Shown here: piece by piece, positions 1,100 to 37,810 of the stretch
Layout of the letters: every line of letters starts with the position of its first letter
Numbering within the stretch: position 1 is the stretch's first letter
DNA from: an uncultured Gammaproteobacteria bacterium
GTDB lineage: Bacteria > Patescibacteriota > Patescibacteriia > VMEV01 > CAZAJQ01
Direction of reading: 5' to 3'
Assembly (NCBI GenBank): GCA_964485795.1
Contig: CAZAJQ010000005.1
Span: 4,678-68,677, forward strand
DNA length: 64,000 nt
Translations under genes and position numbers: made by a program
The notes under the pieces: generated by a model
The model's input: the letters and a program-made list of their open reading frames with translations, nothing else
What the model was told of the DNA's origin: nothing
The model's database searches: none

Positions 1100-1117
1100 T
1101 CTGAACTCATTTCACCT

Positions 1118-8872: not shown

Positions 8873-9149
8873 TGCAAACCCGCCAAAGGGACCTACGGAT
8901 GCTATGGACATGTTTCCGGAACGATTGCGGATAAAAATTTTCGTAGCGATCTAAAAAAAGAAATCCATCGACGCGGACACTATGTCGTCCAGCCCGAAAT
9001 TCCCGCATCCGTCATTTCCAATGAAACGACCGGAGAAACATACACCTTCATTGATCGAATTTTCTTCGGTATCATCGAAGGGAATCCTCTCTTCCTCGGC
9101 GGTATGAGAAATCTCATGCCGCAAGAGAGCATTGAAAATAAAAAAGGAA

Positions 9150-9181
9150 GGATACACGGCAACTCAAAAGCCGTGTATGCC
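9150..9181 (+). other. Imperfect hairpin in the intergenic region (ggatacacggc-N9-gccgtgtatgcc)
   Basis: About 10-bp inverted repeat seen directly in the sequence. Confidence 0.3.
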
Positions 9182-9233
9182 GAAATCGTGTGCTGAATCG
9201 TTTTATCATGAGTTCTTTCTTTCTATCGGGCCA

Positions 9234-9264
9234 GCGTTTATACTCTATATGCTAGTATAAACGC
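9234..9264 (+). promoter_or_regulatory. Perfect 10-bp inverted repeat abutting the start codon of the M20 peptidase gene
   Basis: gcgtttatac-tctatatgcta-gtataaacgc, immediately followed by the ATG at 9265. Candidate operator or translation-masking hairpin. Confidence 0.4.
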
Positions 9265-11260: not shown

Positions 11261-11473
11261 TTATTGATTGCTTCTTATACTTTGCTTATTCGCATTCGAC
11301 CTCGCGCGAATCGCTCGTGCAATGATACCTGCGCCGACAATGACGATAATGGCTACGAAGGGGCCAATCCAATCAGCTTCGGCAAGATTGGATACCTCCG
11401 TTTCCTCTTCGTGGGCAAACACCTGCGGCGCCGAGGAAAGCAAGAGTGCAAGAGCGGTAAGAAGTATTTTCAT
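11261..11473 (-). CDS. Small exported, membrane-anchored protein (signal peptide, acidic HEEETE segment, C-terminal TM)
   Basis: MKILLTALALLLSSAPQVFA signal; TM PFVAIIVIVGAGIIARAI. The start 11473 abuts the stop of the upstream CcdA-like gene (translational coupling). The ORF track start at 11554 is rejected as an overlap. Confidence 0.5.
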   Translation of the reverse strand: MKILLTALALLLSSAPQVFAHEEETEVSNLAEADWIGPFVAIIVIVGAGIIARAIRARSNANKQSIRSNQ

Positions 11474-16893: not shown

Positions 16894-17011
16894 AGCCACT
16901 CTCGAAAAATACTTTTTTTTCATACATTCAAGAGTACGTGAAAAACCACCTTCTTAAGAAAGTAGACTTTTCCAAAAAAAATCGCTACAATACTGAAATC
17001 CCCCAAACTTC

Positions 17012-18139: not shown

Positions 18140-18145
18140 CCCTTT

Positions 18146-21727: not shown

Positions 21728-21822
21728 TGCCCGACCATCAAGCGGCGATTATTTTTTAAAAAAAATTGAAACAAAAAAATCAGCGAGTGTTCGGATTCGG
21801 TGATGAATAATTTTATTTATCT

Positions 21823-22269
21823 ATGAAACTTTCAAGCCCTGCGTTTCAAAATGGCGCCCCCATCCCGTCGAAATACACTTGTGACGGAAAAAATGTAAAT
21901 CCGGAATTCCAAATCTCCGAAGTCCCCGAAGACGCAAAAAGCCTTGCTTTTGTCATGGATGATCCCGATTCCCCGAGCGGGACTTTTGTGCATTGGACAT
22001 TGTGGGACATGCATCCCAAAACGCCGGAAATTCTTGTTGACAGCGTTCCCTTGGCCACGGAAGGCATGACGAGCTTTGGAAAACCGGGATATGGAGGACC
22101 ATGCCCTCAAAGCGGCGAACATCGCTATTTCTTCAAACTTTACGCGCTTGATACGGCACTCAACCTTCCTTCATCGACGGACGTGAAAACATTGATGCAG
22201 TCCATGCAAGGACATATCCTGTCACAGGTAGAACTGATGGGGCGATACGCGAGGGGAAAAAAATCTTAA
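21823..22269 (+). CDS. YbhB/YbcL-family phosphatidylethanolamine-binding protein (PEBP, Raf-kinase-inhibitor-like)
   Basis: 148 aa. DPDSPSG ... HW motif and GxHRY signature (GEHRYFFKLYALD). Confidence 0.8.
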   Translation: MKLSSPAFQNGAPIPSKYTCDGKNVNPEFQISEVPEDAKSLAFVMDDPDSPSGTFVHWTLWDMHPKTPEILVDSVPLATEGMTSFGKPGYGGPCPQSGEHRYFFKLYALDTALNLPSSTDVKTLMQSMQGHILSQVELMGRYARGKKS

Positions 22270-22376
22270 ACCTAAAAACTCTCCAGCATCACACGAAACG
22301 ATTCTTATTATTCCGCTTCGTTTCAAAAAAATCCGAAGATCATGAATTTCGTCAGTACCCGAAGGAAACCAAAAAA

Positions 22377-24176
22377 TCAGGGTCGCTGGAATTTTTTTGC
22401 GAGTTCATCCCATGTGATATTCCACATGCAGGGTCTTCCGTGGGGACAAGAGATGACGCGATGTTTCCGAATATCTGAAAGCAAGGCGACTTGTTCCGCT
22501 GAAGTGAGACGATCGCCGAATTTTACCGCCGCACGACATGCGGCGGATTTTTTTATGGCCTCTTTTTTTTCTTCGACGCTCGAAAGTTTCGCGAACGATT
22601 CGTCGCTGATATCCTCCACCATGTCAATGATTACTTTTTTGACGTCTTTGATCACGATCGCGGACGGAACGCCGGAAATCAGAAAAGTGTTGACGCCAAA
22701 AACTTCGATATCAAACCCCACCCCCTTCATCGCGGAAACATGTTCACCGAGGACGGACATTTCTTGCGCCGAAACCTCAAGCGTGATCGGCAACAAAAGC
22801 GCTTGAATTTGCGCATCGACGGTTTCATCGGACATCCGGTCAAAAAGAATACGCTCGGCCGCGGCATGCTGATCGATGATCATGAGATGATGGCACACCT
22901 CCACAAGCAGATACGAATCGTGAATCTGCCCCAAGAGCCGCCATTCATCTTGACTCTCGGTGATCGACGATTGGATCTTTGGCGTTTCCGAAACGATATC
23001 GGTGTCTTGCAACAATGCTTTCTGAAATTTCATTGTTTCGGAAATCGTAACTTGCGAGAAATTTTTCGGCCCGCGCCCAGAGTCTGAAGTTGAAAAGGAT
23101 CCGATTACGGGCGCAGATGGCATTGCTTGCGAATATTGCGACACGGGATTCGTACGAAATGAAAAAACGTCTCTTTTGAAATTTTCGGACTTTCCGTCAT
23201 TTTTCATTTTTTCCTCGACCGCCGAAACGATCAACCGATACACGGTCTGAGGCGCCAAAAATTTCACTTCGCTTTTTCGCGGATGCACATTCACATCGAG
23301 CAAATGCGGGGAAACATCCAAACGACAAACAAAAACGGGATATTCGCCTTTGGGTATCACGTTCGCAAAGGCATCTTTGAAGGCTCTTGATATCATCGCA
23401 TCAAATACCGATCTTTGATTGACAAAGAGAAATTGGCTTTGCCGATGGGCTCGATGAATGCGAGGATCCGCAAAAAATCCGGAGACCTCATAGTCCGCAA
23501 TTTTTTTTTGAAATGAAACGAGATTCTTTCCAACTTCGGAGCCGAGCACCTCTTTCACCCTTTCCATCCAAAGGTTTTGAGGAAAATAATGAACGACTTT
23601 TTTCCCGTTGTGAAAACATTGAAAACCTTTTTGAAAAAATAAAAGGGAAAAATCCGTAAAAATTTTCAAGCAATGCGAAAATTCGGTGCTTTCGTTTTTC
23701 AAAAATTTTTTTCGAGCCGGAATATTGTAAAAAAGATCATCCACGATCACCGTCGTTCCGTCCGGCAAGGCACTTTCGCTGAAGCGTCTTTCTCCTCCGT
23801 CCATGCTCGCTTGGGATCCGGTCAGGTCGCTTCGAGATTTGGTTTGCAAGGTGAATTTCGAGACGCTTGATATGGAAGCCAACGCTTCGCCTCGAAACCC
23901 AAACGTATTCAATCGATAAAGATCATCGATACTTTCGATCTTGCTCGTCGCATACCGCTCAAGACCGTTGATCACGTCATCGCGACGCATGCCGATGCCA
24001 TCATCCGTCATGCGAATAAACCGTTTTCCGCCGTCTCGCAGCTCGAGGATGATGTTACTCGCTTGGGCATCAAGCGCGTTTTCGATGAGCTCTTTCACGA
24101 CGCTTCCGGGTCTTTCCACGACCTCGCCGGCCGCGATTTTATTGATAACGTCTTGGGAAAGTTTTGTTATGGGCAT
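22377..24176 (-). CDS. mutL: DNA mismatch repair protein MutL
   Basis: GHKL ATPase motifs (ELIENALDA, DDGIGM) and the C-terminal dimerisation domain. The ATG at 24176 is preferred over the track's TTG-initiated N-terminal extension to 24224. Confidence 0.85.
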   Translation of the reverse strand: MPITKLSQDVINKIAAGEVVERPGSVVKELIENALDAQASNIILELRDGGKRFIRMTDDGIGMRRDDVINGLERYATSKIESIDDLYRLNTFGFRGEALASISSVSKFTLQTKSRSDLTGSQASMDGGERRFSESALPDGTTVIVDDLFYNIPARKKFLKNESTEFSHCLKIFTDFSLLFFQKGFQCFHNGKKVVHYFPQNLWMERVKEVLGSEVGKNLVSFQKKIADYEVSGFFADPRIHRAHRQSQFLFVNQRSVFDAMISRAFKDAFANVIPKGEYPVFVCRLDVSPHLLDVNVHPRKSEVKFLAPQTVYRLIVSAVEEKMKNDGKSENFKRDVFSFRTNPVSQYSQAMPSAPVIGSFSTSDSGRGPKNFSQVTISETMKFQKALLQDTDIVSETPKIQSSITESQDEWRLLGQIHDSYLLVEVCHHLMIIDQHAAAERILFDRMSDETVDAQIQALLLPITLEVSAQEMSVLGEHVSAMKGVGFDIEVFGVNTFLISGVPSAIVIKDVKKVIIDMVEDISDESFAKLSSVEEKKEAIKKSAACRAAVKFGDRLTSAEQVALLSDIRKHRVISCPHGRPCMWNITWDELAKKFQRP

Positions 24177-24191
24177 ACTTGTCCGATAAAC

Positions 24192-24222
24192 GAATACGCT
24201 CTTTTTTCCAAAGAGCGTATTC
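24192..24222 (-). terminator. Perfect 12-bp inverted repeat between the giant gene stop and the mutL start
   Basis: gaatacgctctt-ttttcca-aagagcgtattc. Candidate terminator for the giant gene transcript. Confidence 0.35.
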
Positions 24223-24245
24223 AAAGTGAAAAAATGGTTGCATCG

Positions 24246-27200
24246 CTACAGGACGGACTGTTTTTTCATAGCGACATCGACATTGACGATGGCCTCGTCT
24301 TTTTTGATGTCCAGCACTTGATTGGCCTTGTACACAGGGTGGTCGCTTCTCAAAGCCTTTGCCTCCGACAGAGGTTCATATCCGGTCTTTTTCACCTGCA
24401 GCTGATACTTCCCGGCTTTCGGCAGAAAATGGTACCTCCCCTCATAATCCGTAAGCCTTGATTTTAAGAGCTTCCCATACTCCGCGTCAATAATATTGAT
24501 CACCGCCAGCGCTATCGGCATCCTTGTGGCTGCATCGTACACCACTCCCCATGAACGGAGCGCCTTGGGACTGAATACCTTTTGCGCCAACCCAAACATC
24601 ACGTACAGCCAGAGTATCACCGTATTCGTCAGATTGAAACTTCCATACGTCAGAAGCACGCTTCCCGTCAACCCTATCCACAGTACCGGGCCGGATACCT
24701 TCCGTATGGCCGCCTTCATCTCGTACCATATATTCCCAAGAACGCTCATCGCAAGCTTTTCTTCCTTCACATCCGTCGGGTCTATCGGAATATTCACTCG
24801 TATGGTCACTCCTTCCCTCCCCAGCGTCAACGCTCCTCCAAGGTACAAATCTTCATATCCCGCATCCGCTCTCGTTCCAGCGGGAATCAGCTTCGATATC
24901 CCGGCATATCCCTGCTTTTGCACCTCAAGTCGATACCTTCCCTCCTTCACGAGGAATCCCAATCGACCTTGTCCGTCGGTGACGGTCGTGGAAATCAGAC
25001 GCGGTTTGGCGTTTGGCGTAGCCGTATCAACGCTGTACAATCTCACGATGGCCAATGACACCGGTTCCTTCGTGATGCTGTCATACACGACTCCCCAAGG
25101 TTGTTTCTTCTTCTTGATCCCCAGTACCGAGAGCAGCCATGAGATGAAATGATACAGGTATGCCCAGATATGCGGAATATTCGCCGCTATCGCGGGGTTC
25201 AGCAACGTCACCACCGGCGCTATAGCGATCAAGGCCACCTGGCTTGGCTTCTCCACCTTTTGTATATTCTCTTTCACTGCCAATGCGCTCTCTTTGAGTA
25301 TCCTCACCGCTTCCTGCGCCGTGATTTGCACCAAACTTTGTTCTTCCGGAATCGATATTTCCTTCCATCTCACCAGTCCTTCGAGGCTTGCGTTTCCCAA
25401 AGTGACTCTTTCGCTTCTCAGTCTTCCTTTTCGCAGCTCCGCCGTCACCGCTACGCTCTTTCGCTTTTGCGCTTCCTCCGACGTGATCGCAATCTCATCA
25501 TAGGGCACATACAGTTTCCAATTCCCATTTTCATCACTTTGCACTCGGAACGTCCCGTATTCTCCAAACGTCACATACACTTCGCTTCCCGGCGTCGCCG
25601 TTCCGGACATGGTAAATCCTTCGCTTCCGGCGTCTATGCTTCCAGTGATCGAGAATCCTTCTTCGATCAACGCCTGCTCCTCGGCCGTCGCATCTTGCGG
25701 CAATTCACCGACTCCGATACCTCCGTTTTCAAACGTTGTTTGCCCTTGCGGGTATCCTCCGACAGGGCCTTCTCCTCCCGGCTGCGTCCCGGGCTCGCTT
25801 CCCGGCTTCTTGCCGGCTTCTTCGCTCGGCGGGGATACCGGCTCGGGCGGCACTTCCGCAACAGTTTGCGGCTTGGGTGCTTCCACGATATCCACCCCTA
25901 CCGGCGTTTCTATCACTCTTTCCTGCGGAACCTCCTCCGTCGGAGGCGCTTCCTCACTCGGCACTTCGGGTTGCGGTGGACAATTTTCTTTACACGGTTC
26001 GGTCGGCAACGGCGATATCGGCAGCTGCGACGGCGGTATCACGCTTCTCTCTATCCCGCTTTCCGTGATCCCAAAGTACTTGCTCGTCACAGCGATCCCC
26101 GCTCTTCTCGCGTTCGGGTTATTGGGATCCAGCGGCGGATTCAAAGGATTCATCACCAGATTCGAAAACACCGTATTGAACCCTTCCGCATAATTTACAC
26201 TTGCTTGATTGATCAATATCCCGGGCGTTCCCACATTGCTCGGTAATTGTATTTTAAATTCCACATACCCGATCTGATTCACATTCACATTTCCGATGGT
26301 CCATACGCTCGCTCCTCCGGCCGTTGTTCCTCCGTCTCCCACATTTTGTCCGTCTTGCACTCTCGATCCGCTCACATACCCGACCTTGCTTGAAATCGGG
26401 TTGGTGATCACCACTCCCGTGGCTTTTGCGCTTCCCACGTTCTTGTACTGGATCTGATACACGATCGTATCCCCGGGGATCACTTCTTCTCCATTGTCCG
26501 CATACACCTGCTGCGCATACGTTCCCTGTTTCAGAAACATGATTCCCAAGATACCTTCCGCCATTACAACGACGCTTGCTATCCCCACCCATGCATGCAC
26601 CAAACGATGATGTCTTCTATGCACTCCGAAACTGCTGAAAAACGTCCCGTTCTTGTGTCTCTTCGCCACACTCTCAAACACCTCCACCGGATTTCCCGTC
26701 ACGATTTGTTTTTTAAACTTCATCACCAGCTTCATCTTCTGCCACCACGTGTATTTCCTTCTCCCGCTCAACAGTCCGGCGTTCTTGATCAATATTCTCA
26801 TCGAGTGCAACACCCCGTACAGCAATCCGCAGAGAACCATTCCGAGGATGATGAAAAGTATTTTCCCCCACTCTTTCTGAAAAGCGTATCCTGACACTTT
26901 CGCACGTTTCACCGTCTCTCTTGCGTTTGAAAGCTGTGCATCGACAACTTCTTCGGCCGCTTGCGCTTCGGGGATTTGCCCGAGCTGAGCACTGACTACT
27001 GATTGCTGACTCGGTATCACCCCCACATTCAGCGCTATCACCATCCTCGGGGGATTGATCTGCTGAGTTTTGACCGGAAGTTTGAAGCTGTACACCGTCT
27101 CCAATCCGTCCCCGTTTCTTGTCTTCACTCGAAATTCATACACCGTATTGGGTGTCAGATTGCTGAATTTGTAAAAACTCTTCTGCAGCCATCCGCTCGT

Positions 27201-30200
27201 CTGGATATTCCCGTTGCTCGTATTCACCGCTTCATAGAAATATGCCGTTTGTCCTCGGTAATCCTGCACTTGCTTGAGCACATCTCCTTCCGTGATCTGC
27301 TCCACATCCGCGGTGATGGTGTACCCGGCCGCTTGCGCTTGCGAGACGTCTATCACTCCATCCACTTGTATCTCGATTTCCCTGTCGCTGACCTGGATCG
27401 GTTGCACTCCTTTGGGAACTTCCGCGAGGGTGTACACGGTGGCGGTGTTTGACGCAGACGAGCTCCCCACCACGTTGAACGATTTCACTCGTCTCGTGTA
27501 TTTCGTATTGGCTTTGAGTCCGGTTTCTTCGAGGAAGGAAAGATCGCTCGTCGCATTCGGCAACGTGTCCAGAACTTTATTCCCGTTCGCATCCTCCAGT
27601 ATGAATCCCGTTTCATTGCTCGCCGTATCCGTGAAATTCCATCGTATCACGCTGCCGCTCAAGGGTGTCGGAACTCCGATAACCGGTCCCGACGGCGCGC
27701 TCGGCACCACGGGTATGCTTCCTCCCTTCGTGTAATTGAATGATGACGTTTGTCCGCATACTCCGATATTCCCGTCATTTGGCTCTATGGCAAAGATCAG
27801 ATTTTGCTGACTGCTCGTGAAATCCACTCCCGTATTCCACACGTATACATGGTCGGCTCCGGGCGTAAGCGCCGTGCTCAAACTCGTCACTCCTTGCGAT
27901 GCAGGGCTGGTCGCCGCCGTGTCTTCCGTAAGCGGGCTGACAAAGGTCGTACCTCCGTCCAATGAATACTTCGGCGTGATATTCGCCGTTCCCACCACCG
28001 TGTCGATGAGCTTGTAATTCATCACCACGCTCGATCCGCTCGCCGACGTCGGCGTCGTGATCGTCGCACTTGCGGGGTTGTTGTTATTCAGCTTAAACGT
28101 ATTCGTCGTTCCGGCGGTTCCGGCTCCGTTCAATGCGTCCGAGGGGGTGATGCGAAACTTCATCGTGCTGTTCACCGTACTCGGCAAATTCGTCGCCGAG
28201 GCCCAGATGAAGGTATGCGACACTCCCGCCACGGAACTTGCCAGTCCCGATGTCCCGTCTCCTCCTCCGGACGTCGCCGTATTCCAGCTGCTCCCGTTAT
28301 CCGTCGAATACTGCGCCACTATGCTCAGGCTGTCCGAGTTCGCATCCACAAGGCTGTAGGTGATCGTGATATTTCCGTTCACCGCTCCGCATGATGTCAG
28401 ATTCGTCACCGTCGCCACCGGCGCGTTGTTGTTGTCCACTCGAAAATTCCCCGTCTCTCCGGCCACGCTTCCCCCGTTCAAAGGCGTTACTCGGATGCGG
28501 ATCAAACTGTTATCCGTGTTCGGCGCATCCGTCATCGACGCCCATTGAAACGTTTTACTCGGCGTTCCGTTTGGCGTCGTCGTCTGCGAAATCGTACACG
28601 GTACCGATGATCCCGACGTCGCGCGGCAGCTGTCTCCTCCCGCCGACGTCGCCGCGCTCCAGGTGCTCCCTCCGTTCGTCGAATACTCGATATTGATGCT
28701 TGTGGATGCCGATCCCACGTCTGACAATGTGTAGCTGATCGGGATCGTGCCGCTTTGGCTTCCACTCGGCGTCGTCACCGTCGCATAGACCCCTCCGCTG
28801 CCGGTTCCGGACAAAACGATTTGAAACCCATCTCCTATAGGGTTCTTTTTCGCCCTCATCCTCAAAAGCGCACTCGCGCAACCCGAACACTGTGCGCTTG
28901 CGTCCCACACGAACACATGGGCAGTGCCTGTTCCGGCCGTCGCCGTCAATCCCACTTTGCCTTCCGACGCTCCTCCGCCGTCCGTGGCTGTCGTCCACGT
29001 CACTCCGCTGTCCGTCGAGAATTCCGGTGTGATGTCGTAGGAATTGGTAAATCCGGTGTCCTCGGTGAACAAACGGTGGTTGAAAGTGATATCCGTTGTT
29101 CCTAAAGTTCCCGACGTTGATGTCAATGTCGATCCGATCGTGTCGATGTAGGCCGTGCCTGCGCTACCACCTCCCGCACCGTTCGCAGTGATGTTGCTTG
29201 GTGTTAAACCCAACGCCGTATTCGCGGCATTGTAAATAATGGCAACTCGACCACCGCCTCCATTGCCGGCGCCTCCTGCAGTAACCGTTCCCGCACCCGT
29301 TATGGTGCCGCTTGAAGTTAAAAGTTTCACCGTACCTCCGGCTCCATTCCCTGATCCATCTGCCCGAATCCCTCCGCTCACGGTAATGTTCGTAGCGGAA
29401 ATATTGACAATGCCACCTCCATTTCCACTCGTACCTCCGGAACCGGGTAACGTTGGATTCTCTACGGAATCATAGACTCGGGTTCCCGACGCGCCACTGC
29501 CTGTACCTCCATGACTTCCGTTCGTATCAGCGACAGAATCGCACAATCCGTTGGCGGTATTCAATCGCGCGGTAGGACAGCCTCGCGCGTTCACATCGAT
29601 CAAACCATTCGTATTGACCGTAAGCGCATTCACCACCGTCAAATCCAATTTTCTCGTAACCGTCGACGTGGACGGTAAATGGGTAAGAGCATTGTTTCCG
29701 ACGCCACCGGGATCGTTGATGGTGACATTTTTAAAAGTAATCGCTCCTTCGAGATTTACATATCCAAAAGAAACCGCTAGATTAACGGTGTTTGGATTGA
29801 TCGTCGCAAACATGCTCGATTTTATCATTATCGACCCGGATGCCAACCCGCTGTGATATGTAATACTGTTTGTATCCGTCGTCGTGTTCCGTAAAAGCAC
29901 GGTTCCTCCGCCGGTCCCGGCTTTATCCGTGCCCGATGACCATGAAAAAGCATTAAGCGTAGTCAGAGCATTATCAGTCGTACCCTGAATGAAAATACGT
30001 CCGCCACCTCCTCCACCGGTATCAGTCCTCGCTTCAACGGTTCCTGTGCCTGTGAATGATCCGGTCGCAACCAATTTAATCGCGCCACCGGCAGCATCTC
30101 CGCTGCCTCTATTTGCGCGAATTGTCCCATTGACGACTATATTCCCCCCGGCTGAAATGCGTATCACTCCACCGCCTGCCGCGCCGGCAGCGGAACCGGA

Positions 30201-33200
30201 TCCGGGATATGAAGGATCATCAATAAAATCGTATGTACGATCAATGATATCCGCCGTAGCGACTGAATGTCCGGCGGCACCATGACTCCCATACGTATCG
30301 GCCGCCAAACTGCATTTCAAATCGCTCAACGATGGATTAAATCGAGTAGCTCCGGGACAGCCTAACCCATTCGCATCAATAAACTCTCCAGAGTCTACCG
30401 TTAAATCATTCACGACCGTCAAATCCAATTTGTTCGTCTGTGTAGCCGTGCTTGCGAAATGCGATAATTTCGAAAACCCCCCGCTCGATACCACATGTAC
30501 AGTCTTAAACGTTATCGCCGAAGGAAGTTTAATAATCCCAAAATTGATATTCAAATCAACGAGATTCGAATTTAACGCGCTAAACATCGATGGCGTATAC
30601 GTCGCATATGCGTTACCATTCCCCGTATGCATATCCATGGTGTACGTACTCGCTGTCGTGTTTCTCACCAGGACGCTGCCTCCACCTCCGCCGGGATTCA
30701 TATTCGCATAAGCAGTTCGTAACCCGGTATGTGTAATGGTTGCCGCCTCAATGTATAAACGACCGGCTCCGCCGGTTCCCGATGCAGCCGTTCTGACTGT
30801 AATTTCACCAGCCCCACTCAATGTTCCGGAAACGATAAGTTTGATACTTCCTCCCGCCCCGGATCCGCTACCGGTACCTGCTCGTATCGTTCCGCTCGCC
30901 ACGATGTTCGCTGCAGTAATTTTTATTACACCATCACCCGCGGACGTTGCTGAGCCGGATCCGGGATATTGCGGATCATCTATATAATCATAAATTCTAC
31001 TTAAAGCATTCGCTTCCGTGATACTCACCCCAACTCCTCCATGACTCCCTTCACTGTCCGCAGCCAAACTACACTTATTATCACCTCCCGCCGATGAAGG
31101 ATTGAATCGAGTCGTAGAAGGACAGCCGAGCCCATTCGCATCAATAAATTCTCCAGAGTCTACCGTTAAATCATTCACGACCGTCAAATCCAATTTGTTC
31201 GTCTGTGTAGCCGTGCTTGCGAAATGCGATAATTTCGAAAACCCCCCGCTCGATACCACATGTACAGTCTTAAACGTTATCGCCGAAGGAAGTTTAATAA
31301 TCCCAAAATTGATATTCAAATCAACGAGATTCGAATTTAACGCGCTAAACATCGATGGCGTATACGTCGCATATGCGTTACCATTCCCCGTATGCATATC
31401 CATGGTGTACGTACTCGCTGTCGTGTTTCTCACCAGGACGCTGCCTCCACCTCCGCCGGGATTCATATTCGCATAAGCAGTTCGTAACCCGGTATGTGTA
31501 ATGGTTGCCGCCTCAATGTATAAACGACCGGCTCCGCCGGTTCCCGATGCAGCCGTTCTGACTGTAATTTCACCAGCCCCACTCAATGTTCCGGAAACGA
31601 TAAGTTTGATACTTCCTCCCGCCCCGGATCCGCTACCGGTACCTGCTCGTATCGTTCCGCTCGCCACGATGTTCGCTGCAGTAATTTTTATTACACCATC
31701 ACCCGCGGACGTTGCTGAGCCGGATCCGGGATATTGCGGATCATCTATATAATCATAAATTCTACTTAAAGCATTCGCTTCCGTGATACTCACCCCAACT
31801 CCTCCATGACTCCCTTCACTGTCCGCAGCCAAACTACACTTTAAGTCTCCACTATCCGGATTAAATCTTGCACCTATTGGACAGCCTCTCCCATCGCCCG
31901 TAACCGTCCCATTCGTATTCACGGTCAACGTCTGCACCACCGTCAAATCCATCTTCCGAGTCACGGTCGCGGTTGACGGCAAATGCGTCAAACTGTTATT
32001 CGCGCCGCCCGTATCGATCATGGTGACATTTTTGAAAGTAATCGCTCCCTCCAGATTCACATGTCCAAAAGAAATCGACAAGTTCACCGTATTGGGATTG
32101 ATGGTTGCAAACATCGAGGACTTGATGAGGAGTGACCCAACAGCCAACCCACTATGATAGGTGATGCTATTCGTATCACTCGTCGTATTGCGAAGAAAAA
32201 CAGTACCTCCGCCAGTGCCGATCTTCGCCGCGCCGGCTGACCATGAAAAAGCATTCAACGTTGTCAACGAATTATCCGTTGTTCCTTGTATAAAAATTCT
32301 TCCTCCTCCTCCGGTTCCCGTGTCGGTTCTCGCTTCAACCGTGCCTGTTCCGGTGAATGATCCGGTAGCAACTAATTTAATCGCACCGCCGGCAGCATTT
32401 CCGCTCCCTCGATTCGCACGGATCGTGCCATTCACAACCATGTTTCCGCCCGCGGAAATTCTGATAACCCCGCCGCCGGCCGTTGCGTCAGACGCGCCCG
32501 ATCCAGGGTACAAAGGATTATCAATGAAATCATAAACTCGATCCTCGATGTCGGCGATTCCGACATCATTCCCTGCACCCCCGTGACTGCCTTGAGCATC
32601 GGCTAATTCGCTGCAAATAAAAGTTGTTTTATTGAATCTCTTTGAGGCTGGGCAACCCTTACCATTCGCATCAATGAATGTTCCCGCGTTCACCGTCAAA
32701 TTCCCTGTCAAAACGATGTCCATCTTTTTATACGTCGTGCTCGAATCCGAAATCGTGTGCGTCAAAATCGCCGCGTTCTGCAATGTCAAACTCGCAAACC
32801 CGTTCGCACCGGTAAAATCTCCCGTCATGTTTACCGTAATTCCGTCAATCACTATGTCGTCACCGGCAAATGTTCCCGGCGTGACCGTGCATTCTACGGC
32901 CGCGCAATTCGCCGTTTTCCAAGCGGCGTCGAGCGTCTGAATCGCGGCTATATGAAAATCTCGTTTCTTCTCTCCACTTTCTTCGAAAAACGATACATGC
33001 TCTCCTTCGTTCAAGAGATTTTCAAATATACCCATCACTTTCCCTTGCAAACCTTCTCTTTCCAGCGGTAAATATGTTTCACCGAAAAACGCCGCCGCTT
33101 CAAAAACGCTTCTTGAAGCATCCATACGACTCAAAACAAAAAAACCTCCCACCATGATGCATCCAAGGGTGAAGGTTTTTAGAATTTTTTTGAAATCTCT

Positions 33201-33257
33201 TTTTTTATTTTTACGATTCACCATAATATAAAAAAATATTCCGCGACATCCAGTCAC
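24246..33257 (-). CDS. Giant (3003 aa) multi-domain cell-surface protein. It has an N-terminal TM/signal and five Gly-rich parallel-beta-helix-like modules of about 255-380 aa. It also has four Asp-box (BNR, SxDxGxTW) repeats, two FN3-like domains and a DUF11 domain. Further along are a Pro/Glu-rich linker, an Ig-like domain, and two CarboxypepD_reg/transthyretin-like domains separated by clusters of internal TM helices.
   Basis: Single uninterrupted ORF. Motifs read from the translation: GSHGG.G...YD.IDDP.YPGSGS repeated five times; STDSGVTW / STNGGSTW / STDNGSSW / SLDGGTTF; TVTNxG-type DUF11 segment VIPGDTIVYQIQYKNVGSAKATGVVITNPI; YRLEVQKQGYAGIS and YQLQVKKTGYEPLS beta-sandwich motifs. Hydrophobic stretches appear at roughly residues 2040-2060, 2630-2680 and 2790-2860. 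The alternative start Met is at 33224. Confidence 0.8.
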   Translation of the reverse strand: MTGCRGIFFYIMVNRKNKKRDFKKILKTFTLGCIMVGGFFVLSRMDASRSVFEAAAFFGETYLPLEREGLQGKVMGIFENLLNEGEHVSFFEESGEKKRDFHIAAIQTLDAAWKTANCAAVECTVTPGTFAGDDIVIDGITVNMTGDFTGANGFASLTLQNAAILTHTISDSSTTYKKMDIVLTGNLTVNAGTFIDANGKGCPASKRFNKTTFICSELADAQGSHGGAGNDVGIADIEDRVYDFIDNPLYPGSGASDATAGGGVIRISAGGNMVVNGTIRANRGSGNAAGGAIKLVATGSFTGTGTVEARTDTGTGGGGRIFIQGTTDNSLTTLNAFSWSAGAAKIGTGGGTVFLRNTTSDTNSITYHSGLAVGSLLIKSSMFATINPNTVNLSISFGHVNLEGAITFKNVTMIDTGGANNSLTHLPSTATVTRKMDLTVVQTLTVNTNGTVTGDGRGCPIGARFNPDSGDLKCSLAADSEGSHGGVGVSITEANALSRIYDYIDDPQYPGSGSATSAGDGVIKITAANIVASGTIRAGTGSGSGAGGSIKLIVSGTLSGAGEITVRTAASGTGGAGRLYIEAATITHTGLRTAYANMNPGGGGGSVLVRNTTASTYTMDMHTGNGNAYATYTPSMFSALNSNLVDLNINFGIIKLPSAITFKTVHVVSSGGFSKLSHFASTATQTNKLDLTVVNDLTVDSGEFIDANGLGCPSTTRFNPSSAGGDNKCSLAADSEGSHGGVGVSITEANALSRIYDYIDDPQYPGSGSATSAGDGVIKITAANIVASGTIRAGTGSGSGAGGSIKLIVSGTLSGAGEITVRTAASGTGGAGRLYIEAATITHTGLRTAYANMNPGGGGGSVLVRNTTASTYTMDMHTGNGNAYATYTPSMFSALNSNLVDLNINFGIIKLPSAITFKTVHVVSSGGFSKLSHFASTATQTNKLDLTVVNDLTVDSGEFIDANGLGCPGATRFNPSLSDLKCSLAADTYGSHGAAGHSVATADIIDRTYDFIDDPSYPGSGSAAGAAGGGVIRISAGGNIVVNGTIRANRGSGDAAGGAIKLVATGSFTGTGTVEARTDTGGGGGGRIFIQGTTDNALTTLNAFSWSSGTDKAGTGGGTVLLRNTTTDTNSITYHSGLASGSIMIKSSMFATINPNTVNLAVSFGYVNLEGAITFKNVTINDPGGVGNNALTHLPSTSTVTRKLDLTVVNALTVNTNGLIDVNARGCPTARLNTANGLCDSVADTNGSHGGTGSGASGTRVYDSVENPTLPGSGGTSGNGGGIVNISATNITVSGGIRADGSGNGAGGTVKLLTSSGTITGAGTVTAGGAGNGGGGRVAIIYNAANTALGLTPSNITANGAGGGSAGTAYIDTIGSTLTSTSGTLGTTDITFNHRLFTEDTGFTNSYDITPEFSTDSGVTWTTATDGGGASEGKVGLTATAGTGTAHVFVWDASAQCSGCASALLRMRAKKNPIGDGFQIVLSGTGSGGVYATVTTPSGSQSGTIPISYTLSDVGSASTSINIEYSTNGGSTWSAATSAGGDSCRATSGSSVPCTISQTTTPNGTPSKTFQWASMTDAPNTDNSLIRIRVTPLNGGSVAGETGNFRVDNNNAPVATVTNLTSCGAVNGNITITYSLVDANSDSLSIVAQYSTDNGSSWNTATSGGGDGTSGLASSVAGVSHTFIWASATNLPSTVNSTMKFRITPSDALNGAGTAGTTNTFKLNNNNPASATITTPTSASGSSVVMNYKLIDTVVGTANITPKYSLDGGTTFVSPLTEDTAATSPASQGVTSLSTALTPGADHVYVWNTGVDFTSSQQNLIFAIEPNDGNIGVCGQTSSFNYTKGGSIPVVPSAPSGPVIGVPTPLSGSVIRWNFTDTASNETGFILEDANGNKVLDTLPNATSDLSFLEETGLKANTKYTRRVKSFNVVGSSSASNTATVYTLAEVPKGVQPIQVSDREIEIQVDGVIDVSQAQAAGYTITADVEQITEGDVLKQVQDYRGQTAYFYEAVNTSNGNIQTSGWLQKSFYKFSNLTPNTVYEFRVKTRNGDGLETVYSFKLPVKTQQINPPRMVIALNVGVIPSQQSVVSAQLGQIPEAQAAEEVVDAQLSNARETVKRAKVSGYAFQKEWGKILFIILGMVLCGLLYGVLHSMRILIKNAGLLSGRRKYTWWQKMKLVMKFKKQIVTGNPVEVFESVAKRHKNGTFFSSFGVHRRHHRLVHAWVGIASVVVMAEGILGIMFLKQGTYAQQVYADNGEEVIPGDTIVYQIQYKNVGSAKATGVVITNPISSKVGYVSGSRVQDGQNVGDGGTTAGGASVWTIGNVNVNQIGYVEFKIQLPSNVGTPGILINQASVNYAEGFNTVFSNLVMNPLNPPLDPNNPNARRAGIAVTSKYFGITESGIERSVIPPSQLPISPLPTEPCKENCPPQPEVPSEEAPPTEEVPQERVIETPVGVDIVEAPKPQTVAEVPPEPVSPPSEEAGKKPGSEPGTQPGGEGPVGGYPQGQTTFENGGIGVGELPQDATAEEQALIEEGFSITGSIDAGSEGFTMSGTATPGSEVYVTFGEYGTFRVQSDENGNWKLYVPYDEIAITSEEAQKRKSVAVTAELRKGRLRSERVTLGNASLEGLVRWKEISIPEEQSLVQITAQEAVRILKESALAVKENIQKVEKPSQVALIAIAPVVTLLNPAIAANIPHIWAYLYHFISWLLSVLGIKKKKQPWGVVYDSITKEPVSLAIVRLYSVDTATPNAKPRLISTTVTDGQGRLGFLVKEGRYRLEVQKQGYAGISKLIPAGTRADAGYEDLYLGGALTLGREGVTIRVNIPIDPTDVKEEKLAMSVLGNIWYEMKAAIRKVSGPVLWIGLTGSVLLTYGSFNLTNTVILWLYVMFGLAQKVFSPKALRSWGVVYDAATRMPIALAVINIIDAEYGKLLKSRLTDYEGRYHFLPKAGKYQLQVKKTGYEPLSEAKALRSDHPVYKANQVLDIKKDEAIVNVDVAMKKQSVL
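30395..31924. repeat. Tandem duplication inside the giant gene: two copies with a 765-bp period, about 683 bp 100% identical
   Basis: Plus-strand shadow ORFs 30736..30987 and 31501..31752 are identical in sequence. 30430..30711 matches 31195..31476. Manual comparison shows identity from about 30395-31077 vs 31160-31842. The flanking modules are diverged paralogs. Confidence 0.8.
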
Positions 33258-33364: not shown

Positions 33365-35422
33365 TCAAGGATTGGAGACAGAAGGCTGACTTTCCGTGGG
33401 AGCGATCGTATCCTCGGGAGCCGGGATGTCGATATTGATCGGGGCGTCGGGGGAAACATCGGTATCGGTGTTTACTGGAGGTTCGGTATCCGCCGCTTCG
33501 GGTTTGCTTTCATCGTTCGGAGTTCCTTCCGGCTTGTTGTCACCCTCGGTGCCTTGCGCGCCGTCAGCTCCTTCCGGAGGCAACACAGCGGGATCGGTAC
33601 CTCCGATGAGGCAAACTTCCTGCCATGGACGATAATGGCTTTGAAACGTTTCGGTATTGACTCGTCCGTCGGCGTAAACGACGGTTCGAGTAAAATATGC
33701 GTCGGCGCCATTGTGTGCGGATTCGGTGCATTTTCTTTTTCCCGCCGGCAAATCGGGAGTATAGACGATTTTCGTCGGAGGAGGACGACGGATATTGTAA
33801 ATGACGGGATCGGTTTGCTCGACCTTTCGCTTGTCCGACGTTCCCCAAAACGTAAAAATCAAATCATTTCCCTCAATGCTCGTGTGCAGCAAAAGATGCT
33901 TGCCCGTATCGTTTTTAAAACGAAAATCCGGCGCTGGATCGTAAATCGTCGCATCGGTTCCCGCCGGCTCATAATACCTCACTCGATACGAGTGATTTTT
34001 TCTTTCCAGCACCGGAAGTCCGGCATTGAGCACGGCTCGAAAAAGCGTCGTCCCGATCTGACACAAACCTCCCCCGTATTCCGGTACGGTCTTGTCGCCT
34101 TTGATGACGAGCTCGGGCAAATACCCCGACTTGGCGTTGATATCCCCGAGTGCGGCGAGCAGTGAAAATTCCTCATCGGGTTTTATCAAAATACCGGTCA
34201 ACGCATCGGCTCCCACGCTGATGTTGTGACGCCGATTTTGCGGAGATCCCCAGAAATTGGATTTTCCTCGACCCACCATTTCGCGTATGCCGAAATTGCC
34301 TTCGGTTTCGGTTTGATCGGGCGCCACGTCGAGAACGACGAGCTCCATTTCAGTTTTCGAGTTTTTCAAGATCTCATCGTTCATCCTCGTCAAAGTCGTG
34401 ACGATATCGAGCTTTCTTCCGCTTTCTTCGACGGAAAACTCTCTCACTTTTCCGCTTGAGTCGATTTCAAACTTCGCTTTTTTCGGAGATTTATTGACGC
34501 TCGCGGAAACGACGGCATTGAAATAATCCAAAGCCTTTTCGGATCCGAAGGAAAGCATCGTCTCTTCGCTTTTTTTCTCGAGAAAAAGAAACGAAACCAA
34601 TTGAGGCGCTGATACCGTAAATGATTGATCGAGGTAATGGAGACGTGTGGCGGTGAATCGGTTTGCCAGTCGCAAAATTTCTTCTCGATGTTTCTCGATA
34701 TCGCTTGCCGTCACGGCGGGATAATCATTGACGATGCGAAGCTCTACGGGAGTATTGTCAATGACTCTCAATTTTTCTCTCAAGCGCGCAAGAATATCCG
34801 GATAATGAAAATTTTTTCCCTCTTTTTCGGGAATGATGGTGATGGCTCCGTTTTCATAGTCAAAAAAAGCGTTTTGAGCCGGAGTCACCATGCCGGAAAA
34901 ATTCAGACTCAAAATCTTGAGAAGCTGTTCTTCATCGAGGGTAAATTCGGCATCATGATACGCTCCAAAGATGAAAGCGTACATCGCGTCAAACGCGCCT
35001 CTCCTTCCGCTTTGAAAAGCTTGCGAGATGGTTTCATTGTTGTGGAATTCGAGGACGTCATGGGTAATGTCCGGATCGGCGGGCGAAGTCACGATGGAGT
35101 CGATCTCGACTTTTTTCCCCTGCGCTATGAACGTAAACCCCGAAGTTTCAAAGGCACCGGTCGCATCTTGCAATTTCGCATACGCTTCATGCGGCAGCAG
35201 TCCTCCCACGGCCACATTGCCGATGAAAACGCGAGGAAAAAATCTCCCCTGATAATAATTCCAAAGCAAAAAAAAGCTTACTCCGATGCCAAAAATCATG
35301 AATATTGCGGAAACGAAAAAATACCACCACAACGGCTGGATTTGTCCGATTTTTTTTGCCTTGATTTTTTTTATAAAATCGGAAAGATGTTGACGAGAAA
35401 CGTTTCTTATTTTCTTGATCAT
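33365..35422 (-). CDS. VanW-family protein (N-terminal TM anchor, VanW domain, Pro/Asp/Glu-rich C-terminal tail)
   Basis: 685 aa. VanW core motif GGGLCQIGTTLFRAVLNAGLPVLERKNHSY. TM at residues about 40-62. Low-complexity acidic C-terminus. Confidence 0.75.
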   Translation of the reverse strand: MIKKIRNVSRQHLSDFIKKIKAKKIGQIQPLWWYFFVSAIFMIFGIGVSFFLLWNYYQGRFFPRVFIGNVAVGGLLPHEAYAKLQDATGAFETSGFTFIAQGKKVEIDSIVTSPADPDITHDVLEFHNNETISQAFQSGRRGAFDAMYAFIFGAYHDAEFTLDEEQLLKILSLNFSGMVTPAQNAFFDYENGAITIIPEKEGKNFHYPDILARLREKLRVIDNTPVELRIVNDYPAVTASDIEKHREEILRLANRFTATRLHYLDQSFTVSAPQLVSFLFLEKKSEETMLSFGSEKALDYFNAVVSASVNKSPKKAKFEIDSSGKVREFSVEESGRKLDIVTTLTRMNDEILKNSKTEMELVVLDVAPDQTETEGNFGIREMVGRGKSNFWGSPQNRRHNISVGADALTGILIKPDEEFSLLAALGDINAKSGYLPELVIKGDKTVPEYGGGLCQIGTTLFRAVLNAGLPVLERKNHSYRVRYYEPAGTDATIYDPAPDFRFKNDTGKHLLLHTSIEGNDLIFTFWGTSDKRKVEQTDPVIYNIRRPPPTKIVYTPDLPAGKRKCTESAHNGADAYFTRTVVYADGRVNTETFQSHYRPWQEVCLIGGTDPAVLPPEGADGAQGTEGDNKPEGTPNDESKPEAADTEPPVNTDTDVSPDAPINIDIPAPEDTIAPTESQPSVSNP

Positions 35423-35495
35423 TTTTTTTCAGAAAAAATCTTCATTGAAACCTTTGCCGGAATCTATCCTTGAAACGTGCAAGAATATCTGACTT

Positions 35496-35747
35496 TCAGC
35501 TTTCTTGACCGTTTTGAAGTATTTCATTGAGTACGGCCTTGGCGATATGCGCTTTTTCCTCTTCGTCGGTTTTGGCGGTGCTGATGATCAGACGTATTTC
35601 ACTGCCCTTTTTGGCGTCATCGGGAAGCTTTTTGATAGGCCAGATAACGGTCGCATCGTTTTCAAGACGCAAAACCGCGGAAGTGTCTTCAAACCGATCC
35701 ACTTTCCCCTTGATATCATAGCGCTTGTTCGATATGGAATCCATCAT
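35496..35747 (-). CDS. DUF3006-like small protein
   Basis: 83 aa. The pattern KGKVDRFEDTSAVLRLENDATVIWPIKKLP resembles the DUF3006 consensus (..DRFEG..AVLE.). Confidence 0.5.
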   Translation of the reverse strand: MMDSISNKRYDIKGKVDRFEDTSAVLRLENDATVIWPIKKLPDDAKKGSEIRLIISTAKTDEEEKAHIAKAVLNEILQNGQES

Positions 35748-35901
35748 ACCCCCATCTATTATTTACCCGCCCCAACAATGCCCCGAGTACTGAGAACTGT
35801 GAACTGAGCACTGTATACTGAGCCCTGCGTTTCCTTCATGAAGCCTGAGCAGAACATCTATTCATACCCATGATTAAGCTCCTTGTCAATCTTTGCATGC
35901 C

Positions 35902-37647: not shown

Positions 37648-37696
37648 AATTCCTTATTCTGGTTCTATTGCGGAAAAATTCGTAATTTTTTATTTT

Positions 37697-37768
37697 GCCC
37701 CTATCGTCTAGTGGTTAGGACATCAGGTTTTCATCCTGGTAACCGGGGTTCGATTCCCCGTAGGGGTG
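37697..37768 (+). tRNA. tRNA-Glu (anticodon TTC)
   Basis: GCCCCTATCGTCTAGTGGTTAGGACATCAGGTTTTCATCCTGGTAACCGGGGTTCGATTCCCCGTAGGGGTG. Anticodon loop TTTTCAT. D-loop typical of tRNA-Glu. Confidence 0.8.
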
Positions 37769-37810
37769 CAAAAAAATAGCGTAACGCTTCTATCTTCATT
37801 GATTTTCATC

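Follow-up and report, generated by a model that had tools for sequence, protein, structure and literature searches.

Patescibacteria in cultivation live on the surface of host cells, a lifestyle for which Saccharibacteria need adhesins (PMC10633639). Described beta-helical adhesins include TPS exoproteins (EtpA, FHA, HxuA and HMW1) and autotransporter passengers (pertactin, Ag43 and IcsA), while the prealbumin/CnaB fold occurs in SdrD B domains, in CnaB of SpaA and BcpA, and in the transthyretin-like domain of carboxypeptidase D. Gram-positive stalk domains and pilins are extracellular and carry an LPXTG sortase signal at their end. A role in adhesion has furthermore been proposed for giant proteins that occur in Omnitrophota and further ultra-small bacteria (West-Roberts et al., bioRxiv 10.1101/2023.11.21.568195).

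Here, a giant ORF located in a 64-kb stretch of DNA (referred to as the window, to which all positions apply) was analysed. Its product is reasonably likely to represent a genuine giant surface fibre, adhesin-like and membrane-anchored, from a probable member of the Patescibacteria (CPR). An earlier, sequence-only reading had described a mosaic surface protein, and nearly all of the features that it listed were found to be present (Table 1).

Table 1. Features of the giant ORF and its product, in window positions.
Feature	Positions	Strand	Residues (aa)	Remarks
Whole ORF	24246..33257	minus	3003 aa	GTG start at 33257
Alternative ATG start	33224	minus		product then 2992 aa
N-terminal hydrophobic segment	33129..33185	minus	25-43	basic stretch before; signal anchor or signal peptide
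Five tandem ~255-aa Gly-rich modules	29073..32810	minus	150-1395	
Module m1	32028-32810	minus		
Module m2	31263-32027	minus		
Module m3	30504-31262	minus		
Module m4	29724-30503	minus		
Module m5	29073-29723	minus		
Near-identical 241-codon repeat, copy 1	31119..31841	minus	473-713	
Near-identical 241-codon repeat, copy 2	30354..31076	minus	728-968	Logan contig L001 ends inside, at 30414
Four ~115-aa repeats	27678..29072	minus		one Asp-box each (aa 1414, 1526, 1651, 1765)
Two FN3 domains	27033..27677	minus	~1861-2075	
TM2	26805..26861	minus	2133-2151	most hydrophobic segment of the protein
Basic loop	26604..26804	minus	2152-2218	24% K+R
TM3	26532..26588	minus	2224-2242	
DUF11 domain	26172..26486	minus	2258-2362	
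Pro/Glu-rich linker	25668..26057	minus	2401-2530	
Ig-like domain	25386..25646	minus	2538-2624	seven-strand beta-sandwich in AF2 model; weak Big_6 match
C-terminal anchor cassette, whole unit	24249..25247	minus	2671-3003	last 333 aa
H1/H2 helices	25110..25331	minus	H1 2674-2686; H2 2688-2711	long helix with hydrophobic end; break at N2687
Transthyretin/CnaB-like sandwich 1	24777..25094	minus	2722-2827	
TM hairpin TMc-TMd	24573..24692	minus	2856-2895	basic flanks on both sides
Transthyretin/CnaB-like sandwich 2	24261..24548	minus	2904-2999	Pfam CarbopepD_reg_2

Reading frame and assembly support

The single 9-kb frame that had been read from the sequence was confirmed. A public protein collection contains an identical 3003-aa protein (P0028, encoded on an NCBI contig of 82,401 bp), which forms a singleton cluster, and three Logan assemblies from separate SRA runs were 100% identical to the window over positions 21805-30414, 21829-29925 and 20471-24652. 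No frameshift was observed over the C-terminal ~2,055 codons (aa ~949-3003) which these independent assemblies back; the 5′ ~948 codons lie outside their reach, no independent assembly of this part was found, exact look-ups of the giant protein (with the ATG start and as P0028), of VanW and of two start variants of PMT_2 gave no match, and JGI metagenomes did not contain a DNA pattern specific to the junction. The GC3 of the giant gene (0.55) is native when set beside that of the neighbouring genes (0.46-0.55), and a foreign origin was rejected on this ground; the raised GC of the gene sits in codon position 2, thus reflecting amino-acid composition.

Beta-helix modules

Five Gly/Ser-rich modules with a GSHGG core had been proposed, and five copies were identified, with GSHG cores at aa 223, 482, 737, 990 and 1247 and scores of 252-435 bits against the profile of the module. 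An AF2 model of m4 and m5, of moderate confidence (pLDDT 67.5 and pTM 0.71, based on an eight-row alignment), predicted the right-handed parallel beta-helix that the earlier reading had anticipated, and at model level the region qualifies as an adhesin-like beta-helix, a fold recognised by stacked three-sided coils of short beta-strands and by a structural match to known beta-helix proteins. Pfam Beta_helix (PF13229) and PbH1 gave no match even at E ≤ 1, a family that the distant relative L083 does match, and sequence similarity of the module region to any solved structure was not detected.

The module profile returned 1,407 matches among 1.84 billion representative proteins, and by this search the module is not specific to CPR; although it occurs in ~1,400 protein clusters, the repeat has neither a Pfam nor an NCBIfam model. 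A homology search with m4 and m5 yielded five distant relatives among the matches listed, while no other module-bearing or cassette-bearing gene was found within the window. Across 619 module instances, conserved positions were almost all occupied by Gly, Pro or aromatic residues. At the His position of GSHGG, His (57% of instances) interchanges with Tyr (38%), a pattern that points to a structural role rather than a catalytic one. The super-repeat, with its GGS[HY]GG...GGGGR signature over ~255 aa, may be a new unit that is widely used to build giant secreted proteins in different phyla.

Proposed stalk and second ectodomain

Four Asp-box repeats had been listed under the name of BNR. The four motifs are indeed present, three of them fitting the strict pattern SxDxGxTW and one only a loosened pattern, but Pfam BNR was not reached (13-15 bits against a cut-off of 27), and only a weak match to Reelin_subrepeat-B was obtained. 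A propeller assignment was taken to need at least 27 bits for Pfam BNR and several Asp-boxes ~40-70 aa apart in one propeller; here, the motifs are spaced 112-125 aa apart, one in each of four separate ~115-aa repeats, and a sialidase-type propeller was rejected. No PDB relative of these repeats was found by sequence. The two FN3-like domains were recovered by fn3 (PF00041), which scored 32.5 bits on the whole protein in two stretches (cut-off 25); when searched alone, the second stretch scored 28.5 and the first 21.7 bits.

The DUF11 domain that follows TM3 exceeded the cut-offs of both PF01345 (32.2 versus 24.6 bits) and TIGR01451 (30.1 versus 24 bits), and the Ig-like domain, also foreseen from the sequence, was predicted by AF2 to be a seven-strand sandwich. 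A homologous unit was observed in L083 (TM, basic loop, TM, DUF11/DUF7619 and cassette), whereas the TM pair and DUF11 are missing from the closest relative, P0086. One DUF11 protein was among the matches listed in a homology search with aa 2128-3003.

Hydrophobic segments

Among all 19-residue windows of the protein, insertion energy was lowest at 25-43, 2133-2151, 2224-2242, 2674-2692, 2696-2714, 2856-2874 and 2873-2891. These seven segments, which comprise one N-terminal segment and three internal clusters, score ≤5.2, compared with 6.3 for the next best window elsewhere in the protein. Based on the AF2 model, the insertion energies and an 82-member family, the internal clusters are predicted to be helical, conserved membrane segments and not buried beta-strands, so that the term 'polytopic anchor' used earlier is a fair description. 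All 20 Cys residues are situated within predicted extracellular parts. The sequence 'TLGC' at aa 30-33 is a non-canonical lipobox inside the hydrophobic segment, and a lipoprotein was rejected.

C-terminal cassette

The internal TM clusters of the C-terminal part had been regarded as atypical. They were instead found to belong to a conserved cassette that is present at 115 genome loci and is thus typical of the lineage. The cassette is defined as a C-terminal unit composed of hydrophobic segment(s), a basic patch, a (P/S)WG-sandwich, a TM hairpin with basic flanks and a second (P/S)WG-sandwich; the protein of the window conforms to this definition, and all parts are visible in the AF2 model. 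H1 and H2 are of marginal hydrophobicity only, and the hydrophobic stretch after H2 continues to I2716, where it is followed by KKKK. Of the two transthyretin-like sandwiches proposed earlier, the second scored above the Pfam cut-off for CarbopepD_reg_2 (35.8 versus 32.2 bits) and belongs with PF13715 and PF13620, while the first remained below it (28.7 versus 32.3 bits); both are beta-sandwiches in the AF2 model. The halves of the cassette, as read from the sequences, resemble duplicates of one unit.

Searches with the cassette identified 26 protein homologues (E down to 9e-74), and the 115 loci, nearly all labelled Patescibacteria, represent >100 species. Because of this labelling, and because the closest relatives are from Uhrbacteria (40% identity), the source bacterium probably belongs to the Patescibacteria (CPR); no rRNA genes were found in the 64-kb window. 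In every locus examined the cassette forms the C-terminal end of a protein that measures 450-2,641 aa and has N-terminal hydrophobic segments, and the ectodomains that precede it are unrelated to one another (Beta_helix, NHL propeller, Big_1/Big_2 and PKD). Tandem cassette-bearing giant genes occur at two loci. Three more module-bearing proteins end in the cassette; for one of them, P0086, collinearity with the window protein extends over ~1,400 aa (33% identity). Literature searches retrieved no published description of the cassette, which is apparently undescribed in the resources searched.

No LPXTG sortase signal, in which the motif is followed by a hydrophobic stretch and a basic tail, is present at the C-terminus; the sole LPxT[GAN] match (LPSTA, aa 426) lies within a module. 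Sortase-like processing at NP[TA][IL] before H2 was considered and rejected, as the motif is confined to the closest subfamily.

Proposed topology

Topology was assessed from charge bias and simple hydrophobicity sums in 82 family members. Net charge was +4.0 after H2 (positive in 100% of members), +2.7 before TMc (95%) and +1.9 after TMd (88%); the flank preceding H1 and the two turns had a net charge close to zero. K/R residues are abundant in the sandwiches (14-17%), and S/T/N/G in the ectodomains. Under the positive-inside rule, these charge statistics place both sandwiches in the cytoplasm, and the basic loop between TM2 and TM3 would likewise face the cytoplasm. The protein had been described as otherwise extracellular; this still applies to the ectodomains, which are predicted to lie outside, but the charge bias makes a cytoplasmic location more likely for the two transthyretin-like domains.

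In the proposed arrangement, the N-terminal signal or anchor segment would export an ectodomain of ~2,080 aa, the distal part of which would form a right-handed parallel beta-helix rod of ~1,250 aa from five copies of the uncatalogued ~255-aa repeat, followed by a stalk in which four domains with an Asp-box precede two FN3 domains. The chain would then cross the membrane twice, via TM2, the 67-aa basic cytoplasmic loop and TM3, and emerge as a second, smaller ectodomain comprising DUF11, the acidic Pro/Glu linker and the Ig-like domain. The lineage-typical anchor cassette would form the end, with a stop-transfer TM and conserved basic patch, the first sandwich, the TM hairpin and the second sandwich. 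Five or six membrane crossings and three cytoplasmic parts (both sandwiches and the basic loop) are thus predicted by the positive-inside rule. The likely function of such a rod-plus-stalk protein, firmly held in the cytoplasmic membrane, would be adhesion to or contact with another surface, either a host cell or a substrate.

Alternative explanations

The cassette might instead be a four-TM anchor of two hairpins, with both sandwiches outside as a membrane-proximal stalk and only the 67-aa loop and two turns in the cytoplasm, a possibility that we consider less likely. All high-ranking solved relatives of the sandwiches (CnaB, SdrD, carboxypeptidase D and NOMO) are extracytoplasmic or luminal, and Foldseek matched the sandwiches to SdrD B domains and SpaA. 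The halves are moreover tandem-like (turn, hydrophobic helix, basic residues, (P/S)WGVVYD), and since the second half clearly contains a hairpin, such duplicate-like halves favour one in the first half too, where H1 (2674-2692) comes near H2 in hydrophobicity (3.3 versus 4.0 on a simple scale). However, two hairpins would leave the basic flanks (+4.0, +2.7 and +1.9) outside and the neutral turns inside, against the positive-inside rule in 88-100% of the 82 members, and the neutral flank before H1, unlike the basic flank before TMc, suggests that the two flanks face different sides. The helix break at N2687 in the AF2 model leaves ~13 hydrophobic residues in H1, too short for a span, and in the window protein this segment is interrupted by an Asn and a pair of prolines; the sandwiches, in addition to being K/R-rich, contain zero Cys. 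Cytoplasmic sandwiches are the preferred topology.

The remaining alternatives concern the protein as a whole. A partly artefactual 9-kb ORF is very unlikely, whether through in silico fusion of two adjacent genes at TM2-loop-TM3 or through mis-assembly of the module array across the near-identical repeat. Residues 2219-2250 do resemble an N-terminal signal sequence (basic, hydrophobic, then 'YAQQ'), and the TM-loop-TM-DUF11-linker segment is wholly missing from P0086, but across 26500-26900 the Logan assemblies L001 and L002, which derive from two SRA runs, match the window at 100% identity with the same frame open, and L083 presents the order ectodomain-TM-loop-TM-DUF11-cassette in one ORF. 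Regarding the array, no independent assembly of the first ~948 codons was found. The repeat copies encode the same amino acids, with four synonymous differences in 723 nt, and L001, the longest short-read contig, breaks off in the second copy after ~28 nt of the stretch that is perfectly identical, so that the copy number of this 723-nt repeat is uncertain; the repeat offset of 765 nt equals 255 codons, however, and the reading frame is thereby kept at any copy number. An enzymatic beta-helix region (a tailspike- or pectate-lyase-type lyase or hydrolase) that degrades the host or prey envelope, as opposed to a passive adhesin, would be in line with giant proteins of other ultra-small bacteria having been tied to cell-wall degradation (bioRxiv 10.1101/2023.11.21.568195). 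Such an enzyme is nevertheless improbable, as the best matches are non-enzymatic adhesins, catalytic Pfam families are unmatched anywhere in the protein, and the Gly, Pro and aromatic residues conserved in the 619 instances are not accompanied by conserved acidic or basic catalytic candidates. Similarly unlikely is a structural envelope component (S-layer-like or a spacer) that shapes the cell surface without a specific binding partner. Many different large surface proteins carry the cassette, some of them in tandem genes, and the giant gene has envelope neighbours (VanW/PG_binding_4, PMT_2 and Wzy_C) with partial synteny in L080 and L010. Against this, the beta-helix region is most like adhesins, and the singleton cluster and the highly variable ectodomain composition among relatives are more in keeping with interaction proteins that vary than with a lattice that is conserved. 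A membrane-anchored, adhesin-like fibre is the preferred reading.

Significance

Should the sandwiches indeed lie in the cytoplasm, this would offer a testable hypothesis for coupling between surface fibres and the cell interior in these organisms. More broadly, we tentatively suggest, as a possibility that is far from assured, that the cassette is a general, undescribed surface anchor of Patescibacteria whose cytoplasmic transthyretin-like domains and basic loops couple fibres to the interior, and that the module is a new cross-phylum block. In that case, a mechanical or functional link would join large fibres outside the cell to its interior, with outside-in signalling or docking to a cytoplasmic partner as examples of its use, and anchoring by the cassette would operate alongside or instead of sortase-type wall anchoring. 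The cassette flags candidate surface or interaction proteins in >100 species independently of their ectodomains, and both cassette and module could become family models that improve the annotation of 'hypothetical' giant genes.

Comparison with known systems

Compared with the beta-helical adhesins of TPS and autotransporter systems, the window protein has neither a TPS domain nor an autotransporter barrel (no match to Haemagg_act or to an autotransporter barrel in Pfam or NCBIfam, and no NPNL/NPNG motif). It would be anchored by inner-membrane helices and not secreted through an outer-membrane partner, and its ~255-aa super-repeat carries a signature of its own. With SdrD B, CnaB and the carboxypeptidase D domain, both C-terminal sandwiches have the prealbumin/CnaB fold in common. 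Unlike in the LPXTG-ending Gram-positive stalk domains, however, the sandwiches start 3-5 residues past a membrane helix and basic patch, and the charge pattern would put them in the cytoplasm.

The giants of Omnitrophota and other ultra-small bacteria described by West-Roberts et al. are, like the window protein, very large, mostly extracellular mosaics with internal or C-terminal TM regions, from small-celled, probably host-dependent bacteria. They are ten times larger, though, and often contain SecA-like, dockerin or peptidase domains, none of which was matched by Pfam in the window protein; a word search of the preprint did not return 'carboxypeptidase'. Further counterparts are the NCBI 'carboxypeptidase-like regulatory domain-containing protein' entries of Patescibacteria (P0017 from Andersenbacteria, and P0023), of 438 aa and, as a partial sequence, 576 aa. 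These have other or minimal ectodomains and are annotated by the sandwich domain alone. Their homology to the last 333 aa of the giant protein is genuine (E 1e-28 to 1e-32).

Identification of a conserved C-terminal cassette

The last 333 aa of the giant protein (aa 2671-3003), consisting of the hydrophobic helices H1 and H2, a basic patch, two transthyretin/CnaB-like β-sandwiches and an intervening TMc-TMd hairpin, were shown to be conserved in 26 other proteins at 28-41% identity, with E values as low as 9e-74; those carrying a name come from Andersenbacteria, Buchananbacteria and 'Patescibacteria group'. When GTDB, with each species represented by one genome, was scanned with a single conserved peptide pattern, 115 cassette loci were confirmed, 80 of which were fetched. 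The closest were from Candidatus Uhrbacteria (40%) and others from Parcubacteria, Paceibacterota, Nomurabacteria and similar, with a handful of automatically named records carrying other labels. Loci L009, L010, L012, L055 and L083 are titled Gammaproteobacteria or Pseudomonadales, these being the labels as deposited for automatically named TPA assemblies, whereas almost all remaining cassette-bearing records bear a Patescibacteria label.

In every locus, the cassette was located at the C-terminus of the ORF. Complete host proteins ranged from ~450 to 2,641 aa, those examined having a hydrophobic N-terminus, and their ectodomains were mutually unrelated (Beta_helix + Ig + DUF7619, NHL propeller, Big_1/Big_2/invasin or PKD). 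The cassette is therefore regarded as an anchoring unit common to diverse large surface proteins of the lineage, and the C-terminal TM clusters, which the sequence-only reading had called atypical, are in fact typical of it. Two loci carry tandem cassette-bearing giant genes (L043, 419-10918, about 2,020 + 1,460 aa; L080, 3107-15643, 2,641 + 1,471 aa). An Uhrbacteria-like subfamily displays a conserved NP[TAS][IL] motif ahead of H2 and the basic patch (window 25170-25250, aa ~2685-2696; columns 380-400 of family alignment A1). This layout resembles a sorting signal, a reading that was dropped as the motif is missing in more distant family members.

Domain architecture of the giant protein

Most domains proposed by the sequence-only reading were recovered, i.e. 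five Gly/Ser-rich modules, two FN3-like domains, DUF11, the Pro/Glu-rich linker, the Ig-like domain and both β-sandwiches, the last three folds being present in an AF2 model of aa 2531-3003 (26-row alignment; mean pLDDT 81). Its Asp-boxes stood as four motifs, one per ~115-aa repeat, but the BNR assignment did not, as Pfam BNR scored far below cut-off. The sole match in these repeats was a weak one to Reelin_subrepeat-B around the Asp-box motif, and a PDB sequence search returned no relative.

Features of the giant protein
Feature	Position (aa)	Remarks
Hydrophobic segment	25-43	follows basic N-terminus
Gly-rich modules m1-m5	150-1395	five in tandem, 217-261 aa each
Four ~115-aa repeats	1396-1860	one Asp-box each (aa 1414, 1526, 1651, 1765)
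Two FN3 domains	1861-2075	profile-supported
TM2	2133-2151	with TM3, the most hydrophobic segments
TM3	2224-2242	with TM2, the most hydrophobic segments
DUF11	2258-2362	
Pro/Glu-rich linker	2401-2530	acidic
Ig-like sandwich	2538-2624	AF2 model; seven strands
44-residue helix	2643-2686	AF2 model; last 13 residues hydrophobic
Helix break	N2687	AF2 model
24-residue helix	2688-2711	AF2 model; followed by KKKK
First β-sandwich	2722-2827	AF2 model
Helical hairpin	2839-2872 and 2876-2895	AF2 model
Second sandwich	2904-2999	AF2 model

The seven best insertion-energy windows of the whole protein coincided with the N-terminal segment, TM2, TM3 and the hydrophobic helices of the AF2-modelled region, and were clearly separated from the remainder (<=5.2 versus >=6.3). 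Accordingly, the internal clusters represent real helical hydrophobic segments, as had been proposed, rather than buried strands.

Predicted membrane topology

The basic N-terminus would remain inside, placing aa 44-2127 outside; the loop between TM2 and TM3 (67 aa, 24% K+R) would bring aa 2152-2218 inside, after which aa 2243 to ~2690 would again be outside. For the cassette, net charge was measured in 82 family members. Mean values of +4.0 in the 12 residues after H2 (positive in 100%), +2.7 before TMc (positive in 95%) and +1.9 after TMd (positive in 88%) were obtained, versus about 0 before H1 and in the TMc-TMd loop, and -0.35 in the H1-H2 turn. Basic flanks of membrane helices are cytoplasmic under the positive-inside rule, which would direct the TMc-TMd hairpin outward, leave both sandwiches inside and allow just one of the helices H1 and H2 to be membrane-spanning.

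This arrangement is favoured on sequence grounds as the probable one. It agrees with H1 of the giant protein, which retains ~13 hydrophobic residues in the AF2 model and contains two Pro and one Asn, consistent with a single span, and with the sandwiches being K/R-rich and Cys-free, all 20 Cys being located in predicted outside parts. A model in which both sandwiches are extracytoplasmic is less likely, with a still appreciable probability: every high-ranking structural relative of the sandwiches is extracytoplasmic, the two cassette halves resemble duplicates of one hairpin-plus-sandwich unit, and H1 and H2 are each marginally hydrophobic. Given the location of the Cys residues and a DsbD_TM-like membrane protein encoded at window 11470-12438 (-), disulfide formation outside the cell may matter.

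The TM2-loop-TM3 region might be taken for an in-silico gene fusion. This is argued against by two identical Logan assemblies that cross it, and by L083, a locus encoding a distant cassette protein (at least 1,470 aa), in which a large ectodomain, TM, basic loop, TM, DUF11/DUF7619 and cassette follow one another within a single ORF, aligning weakly with aa 2104-2358 of the giant protein (E 1e-5). The sequence comparison instead indicates that TM-loop-TM-DUF11 is a recurrent insertable element, whose insertion would keep the topology, since an even number of spans is added.

Among the best 150 of 1,407 module proteins, three (P0086, P0150 and P0126) also carry the cassette at the C-terminus. 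The giant protein and P0086 (2,207 aa, its N-terminus probably truncated) are collinear, with 33% identity over ~1,400 aa of modules, Asp-box repeats and FN3 and 30% in the Ig-plus-cassette region; P0086 has a short Kazal-containing stretch in place of the TM2-to-Pro/Glu-linker segment.

Diversity of the Gly-rich modules

In a collection of 1.84 billion representative proteins, a profile built from the five modules had 1,407 matches at E<=1e-3, of which 116 reached E<=1e-30. Among the matches listed, almost all were very large (548 to 7,803 aa, 2-13 matched stretches), and the few named ones were from Archangium and Kiritimatiellia, indicating that the module is not CPR-specific. No Pfam or NCBIfam model covers it in the giant protein or six other members checked, and sequence searching revealed no related solved structure. 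Conserved positions across 619 instances were Gly, Pro and aromatic residues (IDV.G.GY ... GGS[H/Y]GG ... YG ... P ... GSGG ... GGG ... GGGGR). At the His position of the GSHGG core, 57% of these instances have His and 38% have Tyr, and a Cys pair, present in every module of the giant protein, is otherwise restricted to its nearest relative, P0029. These features are indicative of a structural repeat rather than an active site. The β-helix fold that had been guessed is supported at the level of models, and five modules stacked end to end would give a rod roughly estimated, rather than computed, at ~25 nm, assuming ~20-25 residues and 4.8 Å per coil. In P0179, a distant homologue, R/W/H-rich runs resembling frameshifted translation occur where relatives have module sequence.

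Identity reaches 73% between m1 and m4, and 87% between m2 and m3. Residues 473-713 and 728-968 are identical, the underlying 241-codon repeats (window 30354-31076 and 31119-31841, offset 765 nt) differing at 4/723 nt, all synonymous and within the last 11 codons; their sequences point to a very recent in-frame duplication. The site may be prone to variation in module copy number, or assemblers may miscount copies there. De Bruijn graphs break at exact repeats, and Logan contig L001 stops in the second copy, ~28 nt after entering the perfectly identical stretch, so module copy number is the one uncertain point of the assembly.

Gene integrity and genomic context

The giant gene is a sole ORF (24246..33257 (-), GTG start, 3003 codons), as the sequence-only reading had stated of this 9-kb region. 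Its start codon is ambiguous: an equally plausible in-frame ATG at 33224, eleven codons past the GTG, would give the N-terminus MVNRKNKKRDFKK..., immediately ahead of the hydrophobic segment, the database copy starts from the GTG at 33257, and neither has a convincing ribosome-binding site. The identical 3003-aa sequence is present in the public protein collection as a singleton, encoded on an NCBI contig of 82,401 bp. Exact-sequence look-up of the downstream MutL protein led to three Logan assemblies, each from a different SRA run, that were 100% identical to window 21805-30414, 21829-29925 and 20471-24652, thus independently reproducing the C-terminal ~2,055 codons, including all internal hydrophobic clusters, with no frameshift.

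Overall G+C is raised (0.50-0.55 versus ~0.46), the excess being located in codon position 2 (0.50 versus 0.32-0.40 in neighbours), with GC3 being ordinary (0.55 versus 0.46-0.55). The gene is native, its composition being due to a Gly/Ala/Ser/Thr-rich product. Its flanks are chromosomal, with MutL directly downstream and TsaD, TopA, Mur ligase, DprA, IF-2, MutS, PolA and PolX farther away. Upstream it adjoins envelope genes, i.e. those for a VanW/PG_binding_4 protein, a PMT_2 glycosyltransferase-like protein and a Wzy_C protein, in that order (window 33365-39217). In L080, a giant gene with the cassette is likewise flanked by VanW and Wzy_C homologues (1739-3001 and 16430-18295), and its counterpart in L010 adjoins a Wzy_C homologue (9105-9704). 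As Wzy_C domains occur in protein O-oligosaccharyltransferases too, the Ser/Thr-rich ectodomain is a candidate for glycosylation. A second DUF11 protein (window 4080-5450 (-), 456 aa, two DUF11 stretches, E 3e-44) is encoded 19 kb from the giant gene.

Comparison with known surface proteins

The protein has been deposited as hypothetical and belongs to a familiar kind, the giant mosaic adhesin-like proteins. What appears to be new is the recognition of the ~255-aa β-helix super-repeat as a large uncatalogued family and of the C-terminal cassette as an anchor used throughout the lineage, its transthyretin-like domains probably being cytoplasmic; no description of the cassette was found in the searchable literature, and databases label its proteins by the sandwich domain alone. 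By analogy, the non-membrane parts are all of a kind known from adhesins and surface fibres, the largest, β-helical one being structurally most similar to adhesins. Together with the varying ectodomains among cassette proteins, this makes a membrane-anchored, adhesin-like fibre the best explanation, an enzymatic or purely structural role being possible. For a Patescibacterium, host attachment would be a plausible function: adhesins are required for epibiotic growth of Saccharibacteria (PMC10633639), and a part in attachment has been proposed for giant proteins with multiple TM segments in other ultra-small bacteria (bioRxiv 10.1101/2023.11.21.568195).
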